DNA of 56,555 bases from Candidatus Moraniibacteriota bacterium. GTDB taxonomy: Bacteria > Patescibacteriota > Minisyncoccia > CAIUEV01 > JAHKAQ01. The DNA is taken from positions 1-56,555 of the forward strand of contig WJJL01000045.1 in NCBI GenBank assembly GCA_014729725.1, given 5' to 3'. The translations under genes and the position numbers were made by a program. The notes under the pieces were generated by a model. It did no database searches. It worked only from the letters and a program-made list of their open reading frames with translations, and was not told the DNA's origin. Shown here piece after piece: positions 454 to 7,331 of the stretch (the stretch's first letter is position 1; every line of letters starts with the position of its first letter).

Positions 454-533
454 ATTTAACGTTTCTGTGTATCTGAAGTTTTTGTCTTTCTTCCTTATTG
501 TAATATAAAAGAAAGGAAAGGCAAAAATTTGGG
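454..533 (+). repeat. 5' half of structured palindromic unit 1: ATTTAAC-N14-GAAGTT-imperfect hairpin-AATTTGGG
   Basis: ATTTAAC at 454-460. CTGTGTATCTG at 465-475 is complementary to 1237-1247. GAAGTT at 475-480. Hairpin arms at about 479-496 and 508-527. AATTTGGG at 526-533. Unit 2 (1352-1519) has the same layout and the same 14-nt spacing. Confidence 0.7.
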
Positions 534-537
534 TGGA

Positions 538-594
538 GTAAAAGAGAAAATTTGAATATTTTTCCTTAATTTAAGCCCTTTTTCAATTTTAAAA
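538..594. repeat. Left arm of inverted repeat IR-a enclosing cassette 1
   Basis: GTAAAAGAGAAAATTTGAATATTT (538-561) is the perfect reverse complement of 1208-1231. GCCCTTTTTCAATTTT (575-590) is the perfect reverse complement of 1177-1192. The 13-15 nt between the two blocks has diverged. Confidence 0.85.
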
Positions 595-606
595 TTTGTT
601 TGTCGC

Positions 607-635
607 TTGACATATAGTAAGTTTTCTGCTATACT
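607..635 (+). promoter_or_regulatory. Consensus sigma70-type promoter of cassette 1 (TTGACA-17 nt-TATACT)
   Basis: TTGACA at 607-612, 17-nt spacer, TATACT at 630-635. The block TCTGCTATACTA is shared with the cassette 2 promoter. Confidence 0.6.
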
Positions 636-699
636 AATACGATACTAAGATAGTGTCAAAAGTATAGTACATTCACTTCAAAAATAGGAGGAAAACGAA

Positions 700-1119
700 A
701 TGGGAAAAGAGTATAACCTTCACTGGTACGGAGTGCTCACCATCGAAAACCTGCAACAAGTCGCAGACCTGCTCCTTCAGCTTCTTGACGGAAAACGCTA
801 CACTTTTGTGGCGGCAAACGAATTTTTTCGCTTCAAGCCAGAGGTCAGGACGGGTCAAACCCTCAGCCACAAGGGAGCCACGACGGGCAAGGCGATCAAC
901 GTCTATTATGATGAGAAAGAAAATCCGCCCAAGCACGCAGGTTTCAATGTTGGTGACACTTACGGAGTTTGGGGTTGCTCGACTAATCTGGCAACGGATG
1001 AATACGACAACGAATTTAACAACCCATACTTCGTTTTTGAGTACAACAAGGTTACGATCACTCACCGCGCGCCCGCTGGGCACTTGTTGTACTGGGTTGT
1101 TGCGATCGAACAAGATTAG
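700..1119 (+). CDS. Orphan 139-aa protein, no family recognised; roughly 50% G+C
   Basis: ATG is preceded by AGGAGG (686-691) at 8-nt spacing and followed by an intrinsic terminator. Composition is unlike every other gene in the window. I recognise no motif. Confidence 0.6.
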   Translation: MGKEYNLHWYGVLTIENLQQVADLLLQLLDGKRYTFVAANEFFRFKPEVRTGQTLSHKGATTGKAINVYYDEKENPPKHAGFNVGDTYGVWGCSTNLATDEYDNEFNNPYFVFEYNKVTITHRAPAGHLLYWVVAIEQD

Positions 1120-1134
1120 AGCAACCCCAAAGCT

Positions 1135-1176
1135 ACACCACCGTCATGTCTTCGGACCTCTGGCGGTGTTTTTTTA
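1135..1176 (+). terminator. Intrinsic terminator of cassette 1
   Basis: ACACCACCG...CGGCGGTGT stem with an inner GTC-TTCG-GAC hairpin, followed by a run of 7 T. Confidence 0.6.
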
Positions 1177-1231
1177 AAAATTGAAAAAGGGCTTATTAAA
1201 AATAAAGAAATATTCAAATTTTCTCTTTTAC
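1177..1231. repeat. Right arm of inverted repeat IR-a
   Basis: Reverse complement of 538-594 (16-nt and 24-nt perfect blocks). Confidence 0.85.
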
Positions 1232-1236
1232 GGAAC

Positions 1237-1254
1237 CAGATACACAGTGTTAAG
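1237..1254 (+). repeat. 3' closing arm of palindromic unit 1 (CAGATACACAG-T-GTTAAGT)
   Basis: CAGATACACAG (1237-1247) is complementary to 465-475. GTTAAGT fits GTTRRRY and opposes ATTTAAC (RYYYAAC) at 454-460. Confidence 0.65.
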
Positions 1255-1272
1255 TGAAGTTTTGCCGATTCA

Positions 1273-1351: not shown

Positions 1352-1519
1352 ATTTAACGTATCCGAGTATGCGAAGTTCGCTTTTCGGATTTATCGATTA
1401 TTATTTGAATTATCTCATTACTATTTTAGCTGGTTTTTGCTTAAATTACCACTAAACAGAGAAAAGCGAATTTGGGAAAAAGGCGAGCCGAGCCTTTTTC
1501 CGCATACTCGGTGTTAGGC
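1352..1519 (+). repeat. Structured palindromic unit 2 (cargo-less copy), attC-like long imperfect hairpin
   Basis: Order of parts: ATTTAAC (1352-1358), N14 containing CCGAGTATGCG (1363-1373), GAAGTT (1373-1378), CGCTTTTC (1379-1386), long loop, GAAAAGCG (1461-1468), AATTTGGG (1469-1476), short hairpin AAAAAGGC-gagccga-GCCTTTTT (1477-1499), CGCATACTCGG (1501-1511), GTTAGGC (1513-1519). Confidence 0.75.
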
Positions 1520-1590
1520 GAGGGTGAGCGGAACGGAGTGGAGCGAAAGCGCAGCGCCCCCGTAGCGTTTTCTTTCAAATTATTTTTTGC
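1513..1590. repeat. Left arm of inverted repeat IR-b enclosing cassette 2, split by a 46-nt GC-rich insert
   Basis: GTTAGGCGA (1513-1521) and TTTTCTTTCAAATTATTTTTTGC (1568-1590) are perfect reverse complements of 2068-2076 and 2043-2065. In the right arm the two blocks are 2 nt apart. In the left arm they are separated by GGGTGAGCGGAACGGAGTGGAGCGAAAGCGCAGCGCCCCCGTAGCG. Confidence 0.85.
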
Positions 1591-1600
1591 GGTCGTGGGC

Positions 1601-1629
1601 TTGACAGATTAGCTGTTATCTGCTATACT
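1601..1629 (+). promoter_or_regulatory. Consensus sigma70-type promoter of cassette 2 (TTGACA-17 nt-TATACT)
   Basis: TTGACA at 1601-1606, 17-nt spacer, TATACT at 1624-1629. Confidence 0.6.
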
Positions 1630-1725
1630 AAACGTCAATAGTGAGAAATCTTTATTTAACCCAAAAAGGGTGGTTTCTCGCTATCGCGAGGATCTGCTCT
1701 TTACTAAACTCAAAGGAGGTAAAAA

Positions 1726-1971
1726 ATGGCACACAAAGAGTTGAAAGGTGATCGTTGTCCAAAGTGTAATGGCAGTGGAAGCGTGATTGCTGATGTTGGC
1801 GGATTTCATGCCGAAGTGGATTGCCCCGATTGTGCAGGTACCGGACTGGTAAACAGCCCAAACGCTTGCAAAAAGTGCAAAGGGTCTGGTAGCGTCATCG
1901 TTGATGCTGGTGGATTCAATGTCGAGGCAACCTGCGAACATTGCAATGGCTCCGGCTTGGAACCGCTTTAA
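1726..1971 (+). CDS. Stand-alone DnaJ-type cysteine-rich zinc-finger mini-protein (4 x CxxCxGxG), 81 aa
   Basis: Motifs CPKCNGSG, CPDCAGTG, CKKCKGSG, CEHCNGSG. Internal duplication of about 37 aa. GGAGG lies 6 nt before the ATG. A terminator follows. Roughly 50% G+C. Confidence 0.7.
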   Translation: MAHKELKGDRCPKCNGSGSVIADVGGFHAEVDCPDCAGTGLVNSPNACKKCKGSGSVIVDAGGFNVEATCEHCNGSGLEPL

Positions 1972-2001
1972 ACACCGCAAAAGCAGATCCGGTTCAATCG
2001 C

Positions 2002-2034
2002 AAGGCGTTGGCTTATATAGCTGACGCCTTTTTC
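2002..2034 (+). terminator. Intrinsic terminator of cassette 2
   Basis: AAGGCGTTGGC...GCTGACGCCTT stem followed by TTTTTC. Confidence 0.6.
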
Positions 2035-2042
2035 TTATATGA

Positions 2043-2076
2043 GCAAAAAATAATTTGAAAGAAAATGTCGCCTAAC
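2043..2076. repeat. Right arm of inverted repeat IR-b
   Basis: GCAAAAAATAATTTGAAAGAAAA-TG-TCGCCTAAC, reverse complement of the two blocks at 1568-1590 and 1513-1521. Confidence 0.85.
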
Positions 2077-4920: not shown

Positions 4921-5775
4921 TTAAGATTTTTCTACTAATTCATAAAAAGTTTCCCAGTCTTTTAAATTCAGTTCTTGAGCTCTGCTTGTTAAAGATTTAT
5001 TTGACTTATTAAGGAAAAATTTGGCTTTTTGTTGATAAATTTTGGAAACAGCGCCTAAATTATTAATTAAGGTTTTTCTGGGACTGGCAAAACCGATTTT
5101 TATTAATTTAAATAAATTTTGAATCCGGGGATCCTGATAATCCAGCTGTTTTTTGAGATTATAAAATCGAATTATCCCTGAATCAACTTTGGGTACAGGG
5201 TAAAAACATTGCTTTTTGACAGTTTGAACAAATTCCACATCATAAAAAAATTGCATCAGCAAAGCTAAAAAATTCATTTTAGGAGGTGTGGCGCAAATTT
5301 TTTTGCCCACCTCTTTTTGAAGCAAAAAAGTCATTGTTTGAGGTCTGTGGGTGATCTGTAAAAAATTTCTTAAAATCTTTTTGGAAATATTGTAAGGCAG
5401 GTTTGCAATTACTTTATAGTCAATTCCGCCGGGAGCTGATAATTGAAAAAAATTCTCCAAAACCGAATCCGGGTTAATTTTTAAAAAATCCTTTTGAATT
5501 AATTGAAGCGAGCGGTCTTTATATTTTTCGCTTAAATATTTATAATATTTTTTATCATATTCAATCGCCAAAACGGATTGAGTTTTTTTAATCAGTTTAT
5601 CCGTCAAAATTCCAAGACCCGGACCAATCTCTAAAACCTGATCATTTGAATCTAGATTGGAACTAGAAACAATTTTATTTAAAACTTCGGGGCATATTAA
5701 AAAATTTTGTCCCAAATTTTTTAAAGGCCTGGCCTGAATTTTTTTTAATTCTTGTTTAATTTGTTCAACTTGCAT
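4921..5775 (-). CDS. rsmA: 16S rRNA (adenine1518/1519-N6)-dimethyltransferase
   Basis: LKNLGQNFL and SAM motif VLEIGPGLGILT. 284 aa. Confidence 0.9.
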   Translation of the reverse strand: MQVEQIKQELKKIQARPLKNLGQNFLICPEVLNKIVSSSNLDSNDQVLEIGPGLGILTDKLIKKTQSVLAIEYDKKYYKYLSEKYKDRSLQLIQKDFLKINPDSVLENFFQLSAPGGIDYKVIANLPYNISKKILRNFLQITHRPQTMTFLLQKEVGKKICATPPKMNFLALLMQFFYDVEFVQTVKKQCFYPVPKVDSGIIRFYNLKKQLDYQDPRIQNLFKLIKIGFASPRKTLINNLGAVSKIYQQKAKFFLNKSNKSLTSRAQELNLKDWETFYELVEKS

Positions 5776-6327: not shown

Positions 6328-6467
6328 AATTTATCTCCTACCTGCTTACTTTTGAATCTGAATAATAAGTGCGCTAATTATTTATTTGTCTCAAACAAAT
6401 AGCACCATAAACAAAATAACAGAAAATTATAAATTTTTTTTAAAAAAAAGATGAAATAAAAATCAAA

Positions 6468-7331
6468 TCAAGATTTTTTAGTTTTCTTTTTAACTTTCCA
6501 TCCTTTAAATTTCCAGAAATACTTAATCCCGGATAAAAAATGAATAAAAGTCATTTTATTGAAAATCAAGCTAAAAATACTTTTGGAAGCGCTCATCTTG
6601 GTATGATAATGAAACATTTTCGCTTTAGGGTGATAAACTATATCAAAACCGGACTCCCAAAAACGCCGGCACCAATCCACATCTTCAAAATACATAAAGT
6701 ATCTTTCATCCATTAAGCCAACTTTCTCCAAATTATCCCGACGAAGCATCATAGCCGAACCCATCAACCAGCCTTTAATTTTATTGGGCTTTTTATCATT
6801 GACTTTTACTTGAAATTTTTTTAGCGATTTTTTTCCAAAAAAACTTCTCCCTAAAAAAGTCCTTCTATAAACAATAGTCAAAGGAGTATAAAAATTAAAA
6901 GCCGAAACTTGACGGCTTCCGTTAAAATTTAATAATTTAGGGCCTAAAATACCCAAATTTTTATTTTTCAAAGCATATTTATATAAAATTTCTATAGAGT
7001 CTTTTTTGATTATAATATCCGGATTAAGGGAAAGAATAATAAAACCCCCGGATTTTTTAATGCCATAATTTAAGGCTTTGGCAAAACCTACATTGTTTTT
7101 TAACGGAATATACCTGAATTCAGAAAAATCTTCCAACACCAAATCGCGATTTTTCTCATTGGCTTCAATATCTATAACCAAAACTTCAAATTTAAAATTC
7201 CCGGAAAATTTTTCTTTTATGGCCTCCAGGCAAAGTTTTAAGATAGGAGTATTTTTGTAAGCGCAAATTATTATGGAGATGTTTAGCTTATTTTTTTTAT
7301 TGAGATTGGTCATCCCCGTTTTCTTCTTCAT
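6468..7331 (-). CDS. Glycosyltransferase family 2
   Basis: ISIIICAYKN start, internal DxD-like region (YFEDVDW). 287 aa. The start may instead be the internal Met at 7313. Overlaps the upstream LCP gene. Confidence 0.75.
   Translation of the reverse strand: MKKKTGMTNLNKKNKLNISIIICAYKNTPILKLCLEAIKEKFSGNFKFEVLVIDIEANEKNRDLVLEDFSEFRYIPLKNNVGFAKALNYGIKKSGGFIILSLNPDIIIKKDSIEILYKYALKNKNLGILGPKLLNFNGSRQVSAFNFYTPLTIVYRRTFLGRSFFGKKSLKKFQVKVNDKKPNKIKGWLMGSAMMLRRDNLEKVGLMDERYFMYFEDVDWCRRFWESGFDIVYHPKAKMFHYHTKMSASKSIFSLIFNKMTFIHFLSGIKYFWKFKGWKVKKKTKKS

Follow-up and report, generated by a model that had tools for sequence, protein, structure and literature searches.

A complete expression module in the loop of an attC-type site, in a probable integron-like array of a Moranbacteria-related genome

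The stretch of DNA analyzed here (the window) is a 56-kb contig of 56,555 nt, WJJL01000045.1, from a Candidatus Moraniibacteriota bacterium, and its array part comprises positions 1–2140. A unit found at 454–1255 (unit 1) was identified from its sequence as an attC-type site whose loop holds a complete expression module, with its own promoter, pointing against the direction of the array. We consider it likely that the array part is the recombinase-proximal end of an integron-like array in a Moranbacteria-related genome of the candidate phyla radiation (CPR), and that unit 1, with a gene in its loop, is mobilized there in the way proposed below. The parts of unit 1, and unit 2, the ordinary site with which it was compared, were the following:

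454–1255, + strand: unit 1, an attC-type site with a gene in its terminal structure, recognized by its boxes, arms, single-stranded DNA fold and recurring frame
535–594, + strand: left arm of hairpin 2, pairing with 1173–1232 (inverted repeats, covariation)
607–635, + strand: predicted cargo promoter TTGACA-17-TATACT with a TG extension (promoter scan)
700–1119, + strand: open reading frame (ORF) of 139 aa, antisense to the array, from a conserved family with 54 homologues
1136–1175, + strand: terminator-like hairpin and run of seven T after the 139-aa ORF, read from the sequence and kept in three public loci (L003, L005, L144)
1173–1232, + strand: right arm of hairpin 2 (inverted repeats, covariation)
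1352–1519, + strand: unit 2, an ordinary attC-type site of 168 nt, the attC of the zinc-finger cassette, with copies 87–90% identical in L009 and L052

Unit 1 was opened by ATTTAAC at 454–460 (box R''), the spacer GTTT, the box L'' CTGTGTATCTG (465–475), AAGTT (476–480), a first hairpin (476–530) and AATTTGGG (526–533, with GGG at 531–533), and was closed by the box L' CAGATACACAG (1237–1247), a single T (1248) and the box R' GTTAAGT (1249–1255). The original prediction had placed the unit at 454–1254; the start was correct, and the end has to be moved because the closing R' runs to 1255. Sequence reading and repeat finding confirmed that the two units have a common order and differ in carrying long arms or a short hairpin. 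In unit 2, only AAAAAGGC/GCCTTTTT (1477–1499) was found where the long arms of unit 1 stand, so that the cargo indeed occupies the place of the short hairpin of cargo-less units. The arms of unit 1 paired in two segments, 538–561 with 1208–1231 (24 nt, 100% complementary) and 572–594 with 1173–1195 (23 nt, 96%). Between these arms of ~57 nt, a loop of 578 nt contained the near-consensus promoter, a 5' untranslated region (5'UTR), the ribosome-binding site AGGAGG, the 139-aa ORF and the hairpin with its T-run, which was not flagged by a simple terminator scan. The GC content was ~0.5 (0.52) inside the ORF vs. ~0.25 around it.

The short motif RYYYAAC-N14-GAAGTT alone was not significant in the window (2 found vs. 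1.2 expected). The full architecture, with a GT-type spacer, a complementary 11-nt L box, T and GTT, was significant and was found twice in the first 2.1 kb and not once in the other 54 kb. When the strand of unit 1 (811 nt) was folded, an energy of -140 kcal/mol (z = -9.1) was obtained, and the R/L stem, hairpin 1 and both arm segments were formed; the z value for unit 2 was -5.6. Other assignments were tried and rejected: hairpin 2 as a degenerate nested attC, for which no R/L boxes were present at the hairpin base, and a dif-like 11-6-11 duplex site at 454–481, in which no inner dyad was found.

Sites built in the same way were detected in public sequences. When one genome per species was scanned for the opening arm, at least 119 loci were obtained; among the matches listed, most were from Patescibacteria, with a few other phyla and archaeal metagenome-assembled genomes (MAGs), and a closing arm was found for 104 opening arms among them, typically giving 76–198 nt. 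A general detector, in which AAGTT was not required, recovered at least 206 units in public contigs. The order of the sites was RYYYAAC, GTWT, an 11-nt L box, the branch AAGTT..AATTTGGG, a second hairpin, the complementary L box, T and GTTRRRY. The spacer was GTTT, GTAT or GTTC in 174 of 206 units and a single T stood before GTT in 190, and the central spacers had the geometry of GTWT (4 nt) opposite T (1 nt) in 190/206. The 11-nt L segments were complementary within a unit and different between units. Hence, what defines an attC site (an imperfect inverted repeat with R''/R' and L''/L' boxes, a variable terminal structure and a hairpin fold) was found in these units. The opening-arm motif was also seen in archaeal MAGs (Nanoarchaeota with a recombinase match, Methanoperedens, Nitrosocosmicus, Methanobacteriota; L022, L026, L029 and L048 among others) and in MAGs labeled Gammaproteobacteria, Omnitrophota and Bdellovibrionales, which could be due to cross-domain spread or to mis-binning.

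In the related arrays, the units were separated by gaps of 300–1500 nt. Fifty of the 52 ORFs in these gaps lay on the strand opposite to the units as written; therefore, the array's own direction corresponds to the minus strand of the window. Furthermore, inverted repeats of 12–31 nt were found beyond the R box in 30 of 61 ordinary cassettes, vs. 1.6% of mismatched controls, and thus the genes of those ordinary cassettes would also lie in stem-closed loops. To our knowledge, classical integron cassettes do not have such stem-closing repeats beyond the R box.

The gene inside the site is evidently a recurrent design. A metagenome scan with the exact opening arm of unit 1 (L box CTGTGTATCTG) gave 50 loci with 34 complete units, 33 of which were 510–1103 nt long with an ORF between the arms; the exception (L139) measured 114 nt and had a 9-bp hairpin instead of the ORF. 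The 31 distinct gene-bearing units held 27 unrelated ORF families (52–293 aa), with a GC content of 0.48 in the ORFs vs. 0.30 in the scaffold, and no Pfam match was found for 10 other cargo proteins. These units shared the frame up to GGGTGGAG and the left arm, and usually a TTGACA promoter. In eight gene-in-site units a common 5'UTR module preceded unrelated ORFs, and terminator modules were shared too. An ORF in the same loop was also observed in units with other L-box types (L054, L067, L108 and L173 among others), enclosed by arms of unrelated sequence; there, the ORF was in array sense, lacked a promoter and was flush with the arms. In the scan without L-box selection, five of 109 distinct units were long.

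The covariation of the arms indicates that they are kept as a stem. In an alignment of 29 units, 84.6% of the cells were paired, vs. 75.6 ± 0.5 after shuffling, and none of 500 shuffles reached the score. Double-sided changes were found in 42 of 67 arm pairs, and 25 of the 26 pairs of the outer helix were compensatory; when the partner was slid by 1–3 columns, pairing fell to 41–54%. L'' and L' were complementary at 10 or more of 11 positions in all of the 33 gene-bearing units, and at 11/11 in the 27 of 27 that passed the filters of the general detector. Full-text literature searches returned neither genes inside the attC terminal structure nor integrons in CPR/Patescibacteria, an absence that is no proof of novelty; the nearest match was a short ORF inside attC that aids translation. 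The gene-in-loop layout, with at least 27 different genes, is therefore undescribed as far as could be found.

The remaining features of the array part, which define its cassettes, were the following:

1–52, + strand: unit 0, an attC-type site of which the contig end leaves the 3' part, with the closing-arm pattern of ~200 units
69–425, - strand: gene of the VOC/glyoxalase family (Pfam PF00903), 118 aa, a cassette gene in array sense
1256–1351, + strand: short "X" hairpin GAAGTTTTGCC..GGCAAAATTTC of 96 nt, an inverted repeat with homologous copies in L130 and L146
1520–2069, + strand: body of the first cassette, with a GC-rich element (1520–1567), arms (1568–1590/2043–2065) and a promoter (1601–1629)
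1726–1971, + strand: ORF of the first cassette, an 81-aa protein of the DnaJ-type CXXCXGXG (zinc finger) kind, from Pfam and the ORF list, with a terminator at 2002–2030
2070–2091, + strand: attI-like end site GCCTAAC TCCC TATATCCGAAC, the same motif that precedes recombinase genes elsewhere

The cassette boundaries were deduced from the R boxes. The four variable positions of R' matched the R'' of the next unit perfectly in 39 of 71 consecutive pairs, vs. 11 of 71 for the R'' of the same unit, and, as far as the boxes tell, such a match is what crossover within the R box leaves behind in integrons. For the window, the rule gave cassette 1 at 1358–2075 (the zinc-finger gene, antisense and with its own promoter, with unit 2 as attC), cassette 2 at 460–1357 (the 96-nt X hairpin plus unit 1), and cassette 3 leftwards from 459 (the VOC gene in sense, with unit 0 as attC). 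Unit 0 contains L'' GCCGAT(G)ATCC (1–11), AAGTT (14–18), L' GGATATCGGC (35–44), T (45) and R' GTTAAGT (46–52), and in array orientation (minus strand) it would be the attC of the VOC cassette. An inverted repeat (46–84/422–460; 39 nt, 79% complementary), obtained by repeat finding, brackets the VOC gene.

The original prediction also regarded unit 1 as a discrete, mobile, foreign-looking module, and this was borne out by a locus from another sample (L144), 93.5% identical to window positions 457–1267, whose left neighbor is a different 154-aa ORF and whose right hairpin differs. Since this copy adjoins a different gene, unit 1 is independent of VOC. The homology stopped within R'' at one end and within R' at the other, whereas the classical boundary rule predicts an end in only one of the two R boxes. 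The X hairpin of the window was shared with two loci bearing other cargos (L130, L146) and that of L144 with L173 and L132; units and hairpins thus reassort. About nine gene-bearing units directly adjoined an attI-like site, by reading of their downstream flanks, and in integrons the position next to attI is that of the most recent insertion.

Additionally, the scaffold of the zinc-finger cassette (window 1352–2076) was 87–90% identical to L009 5377–5998 and L052 3432–4111, and the shared scaffold comprised unit 2, the GC-rich 48-nt element, the arms, the promoter, a 95-nt 5'UTR and the terminator. The homology stopped at 1700–1728 (ATG at 1726) and resumed at 1966–2001 (stop codon at 1969–1971), and in place of the 81-aa zinc-finger protein these loci encode unrelated hydrophobic peptides of 49 and 57 aa. 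We know of no mechanism by which an ORF is replaced so precisely between its start and stop codons.

No recombinase gene was detected by tblastn anywhere in the 56-kb window; the probe was an IntI1 sequence, and the family assignments given here are independent of it. At 24 public loci, a full-length tyrosine recombinase gene was located at the array end and transcribed away from the array. Between the last cassette and the recombinase start, 70–110 nt upstream of the latter, a conserved RYYYAAC-TNNN-TATATNCGAA(C) was found (L035, L116, L128, L172, L040, L170). The end site of L035 is GCTTAAC TGCC TATATCCGAAC, that of the window at 2070–2091 is GCCTAAC TCCC TATATCCGAAC, and what looks like a truncated, inverted "unit 3" is therefore taken as the attI-like end of the array. 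The aspS stop codon follows after only 135 nt, and the recombinase gene of the related arrays is missing there. The sequence CATAAGTATAGTATGTAG (within 2070–2226) bears a loose resemblance to the surroundings of the recombinase start codon in L035. A candidate promoter, TTGACT-18-TATACT, lies on the minus strand at 2176–2147, beyond the attI-like site and pointing into the array, and thereby also facing VOC; this is the position of Pc in integrons. Three array-linked recombinases (270–290 aa) passed the NF040815 profile "XerA / integron integrase" with 234–247 bits (cut-off 220). The array-linked recombinases aligned in one full-length stretch to archaeal XerA (4a8e), and in two stretches to VchIntIA (2a3v).

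Other observations were made on the array part. The promoter of the first cargo (607–635) was shared with the second (1601–1629), in the common context GCTTGACA-N13-CTGCTATACTAA. Back to back with the former, a candidate promoter TTGACA-17-TAGTAT on the minus strand (659–631) faces VOC, 206 nt before its ATG; a similar sequence is also present in L144. The L'' box of unit 0 contains a bulged G (GCCGAT-G-ATCC vs. GGATATCGGC) that was not seen in units 1 and 2 and is like the extrahelical base of classical attC sites. The GC-rich element of ~48 nt, GAGGGTGAGCGGAACGGAGTGGAGCGAAAGCGCAGCGCCCCC... (1520–1567), directly follows the R' of an attC-type site and is kept on several unrelated contigs (L009 5548–5595, L052 and L139). 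Comparison of the window with annotated phages and plasmids revealed no similarity, and an Rfam search of 1–2300 gave no match.

The reading of unit 1 as a mobile attC-type site with a gene in its loop would imply the following course. In the single-stranded state, during replication or transfer, the long arms would zip up and join the two halves of the site; the R/L boxes would then be bound by the XerA/IntI-like tyrosine recombinase of the array, supplied in trans, and exchange would occur at the R box as in integrons. Transcription of the cargo gene would start at its own promoter, regardless of where in the array the gene stands. VOC would be the next cassette after 460–1357, and the zinc-finger gene would be the first, by the attI-like site.

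Several results weigh against this reading. Given the lack of a recombinase gene in the 56-kb contig, activity here cannot be assumed, and no case is known to us in which a site with so large a loop, ~700 nt, has recombined. In the arms, mismatches of the G-T and A-C kinds were equally frequent (53 vs. 60); therefore, the arms do not tell which strand folds, nor whether folding takes place at the DNA level. X hairpins reassort independently of the units, an outcome not expected from a single crossover point. Some homologues of the 139-aa ORF stood alone among housekeeping genes, with none of these sites (L001, L002, L005), and, among the VOC homologues looked up, none was flanked by these sites and homologues occurred outside arrays. 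The three array-linked recombinases failed the TIGR02249 profile "integron integrase" (208–247 bits in two stretches, cut-off 265). Against VchIntIA, query residues 184–202 faced residues 179–240 of the chain, with ~40 residues missing, and thus the IntI-specific insertion is absent; the system is therefore called integron-like, and the array of the window is an attC cluster without an integrase. Published archaeal integron integrases are reported to have the IntI-specific domain (PMC9668308).

A different account of the same locus was given by the original prediction, in which the 5'UTR of VOC, taken as a host gene, was split by a cassette that had entered between this gene and a promoter of the host. 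Unit 1 is indeed an independent module adjoining VOC, the VOC gene has a host-like GC content and homologues outside arrays, and the weak promoter copy proposed there corresponds to TTGATTCGTAATT at 1289–1301 on the minus strand; without 454–1254, this element would lie ~47–75 nt from the VOC start codon. Nevertheless, VOC lies between attC-type sites (R' at 46–52, R'' at 454–460), has the 39-nt terminal inverted repeat of cassette type and is oriented as a cassette gene, and since VOC is structurally a cassette of its own, the data do not point to a host 5'UTR that received an insertion. As for the promoter copy, the motif itself stood, but it was not enriched in the window (8 matches with ≤2 mismatches vs. 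6.9 expected) and was not seen by the promoter scan. Nor did its reading as a promoter relic hold, since the element is part of the hairpin at 1256–1351, whose homologues follow gene-bearing units of this frame with other cargos on other contigs (L130, L146). When the VOC–aspS region was compared, the two nearest available relatives (Moranbacteria, AspRS 70% and 65% identical) had neither VOC nor an array beside aspS, with too poor a synteny and too great a distance for a true empty-site comparison. This account is regarded as quite improbable.

Alternatively, the arms might represent the terminal inverted repeats of a non-autonomous transposon with passenger genes, whose target would be the attC loop, as for IS1111-attC elements. 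Arms of ~57 nt recognizably similar across 27 cargo families fit this idea, as do the conserved junctions (GGGTGGA to the left and GGAAC to the right of the arms, often with GGA on both sides) and the fact that in L003 the same 139-aa module, flanked by the inner part of the arms, sits between two sites and not inside one. However, no transposase was found in the units, each with one small ORF, or in the window, and 10 other cargos had no Pfam match. The arms co-vary instead of remaining constant (the 25 of 26 outer pairs mentioned above), other attC types hold genes at the same place between unrelated arms, the flanking trinucleotide is unduplicated in several units (e.g., L043 and L149), and the similarity of the window to L144 breaks off at the R boxes instead of the arms. 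A transposon is thus held to be unlikely. It is very improbable, in turn, that the layout is a fusion artefact, either an ordinary cassette whose two flanking attC sites lost their inner halves or, as a variant, an assembly chimera. Fused cassettes arising from attC loss are documented in classical integrons (PMC8876359), but the complementarity of L'' and L' in 33/33 gene-bearing units, the covariation of the arms and the presence of the layout on ~30 independent contigs from many samples speak against it.

The cargo protein of unit 1 belongs to a conserved family. For the 139-aa ORF, 54 homologues were retrieved at E ≤ 0.01, all from metagenomes or CPR MAGs and many on contigs of 1–2 kb, with several nearly invariant residues in the family. 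The AlphaFold2 model (pLDDT 93.8, pTM 0.88) had one helix and nine strands. In the original prediction the protein had matched nothing that was recognized, and this was upheld: no match was found in Pfam or PADLOC, nor a convincing one in the PDB (best Foldseek E 0.012, TM <0.35) or BFVD when the predicted structure was searched. It is thus a conserved family with a confidently predicted fold that, by this model, matches nothing known. A protein scan of species genomes for the family yielded no confirmed locus (the first alignment was too diverse, and the second gave 9 pattern matches, 0 of them confirmed). In L006 (5596–6414) and L007 (383–1201), a 128-aa ORF for which Pfam gave no match lies 18 nt upstream of a 72%-identical homologue, and the two genes may form an operon. 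The homologue in L002 (Paceibacterota) is flanked by direct repeats ..CAAACG..CAAG.CAGACA.GGATAATCGTCCGCCTAC.. at 5368–5440 and 6437–6510. VOC homologues 57–85% identical were found in CPR bacteria and DPANN archaea, and homologues 65–70% identical (P0086, P0089, P0129 and others) were common to CPR and DPANN (Woesearchaeota, Aenigmarchaeota).

Compared with known systems, the arrays resemble integrons in their RYYYAAC/GTTRRRY boxes, in a complementary L box that varies between sites, in a variable terminal structure, and in arrays of small ORFs that have a common orientation and an attC after each, with cassette boundaries inside the R box; in related arrays, a divergently transcribed tyrosine recombinase also stands at one end, by a distinct end site. 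Unlike in integrons, that recombinase has no IntI-specific insertion, the L box has 11 bp, the spacer is of 4 nt in one arm and 1 nt in the other, and the sites contain a conserved branch hairpin, AAGTT..AATTTGGG. Beyond the R box, half of the ordinary cassettes here have 12–31 nt inverted repeats, and some cassettes have the gene inside attC, in sites of 450–1100 nt. Published attC sites measure roughly 57–150 nt.

With its three attC-type sites and no recombinase within 56 kb, the window is similar to the clusters of attC sites lacking an integron integrase (CALIN; Cury et al., 2016, PMC4889954), although it keeps an attI-like end site and the contig end cuts its array. Cassettes with their own promoter are known, such as cmlA1 and the toxin-antitoxin cassettes (PMC8876359). 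Like them, unit 1 would be expressed from an internal, here predicted, promoter whatever its array position; their gene, however, lies outside attC, whereas here promoter, gene and terminator are inside the hairpin and run against the array. IS1111-attC elements and group IIC-attC introns likewise place extra DNA inside an attC site, but no transposase, reverse transcriptase or ribozyme was found here (the only ORF has no Pfam match, and Rfam gave none), and both the position and the flanking stem belong to a conserved frame that co-varies. The recombinase of related arrays is closest by sequence to XerA, which recalls archaeal XerA and the pdif modules of Acinetobacter plasmids; in contrast to the 28-bp duplex dif-like sites of the latter, the sites here are hairpins of at least 76 nt. 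As for transposons with terminal inverted repeats or miniature inverted-repeat transposable elements, arms are present here, and a flanking GGA repeat occurs in many units, not all; the arms co-vary.

As a tentative and still rather doubtful generalization, CPR bacteria and DPANN archaea might carry an integron-like system with a XerA-type recombinase lacking the IntI domain, in which every gene lies in a stem-closed loop between or inside hairpin sites, both R boxes are exchange points, and unrelated ORFs, swapped precisely from start to stop codon, are taken up by conserved expression scaffolds made of site, arms, consensus promoter, 5'UTR and terminator.

Integron detection tools apply an attC length limit of ~200 nt and require the IntI-specific domain. 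If these limits hold, such tools would overlook gene-inside-site cassettes and this type of recombinase, or would record them as orphan attC clusters. If recombination does take place at a site whose loop measures 500–1000 nt, the terminal structure of attC can be of gene size when long arms close it, which would change what counts as a cassette. The IntI-specific domain is thought to be necessary for integron recombination, and a recombinase without it may represent an intermediate between Xer and IntI, with a bearing on the origin of the integron integrase. The conserved scaffolds with precisely exchanged ORFs provide a concrete data set on how cassettes are built. If the reading as a XerA-type system is true, these arrays would be a natural cassette-building platform, relevant to two unsolved questions, the origin of cassettes and the descent of integron integrases from Xer.

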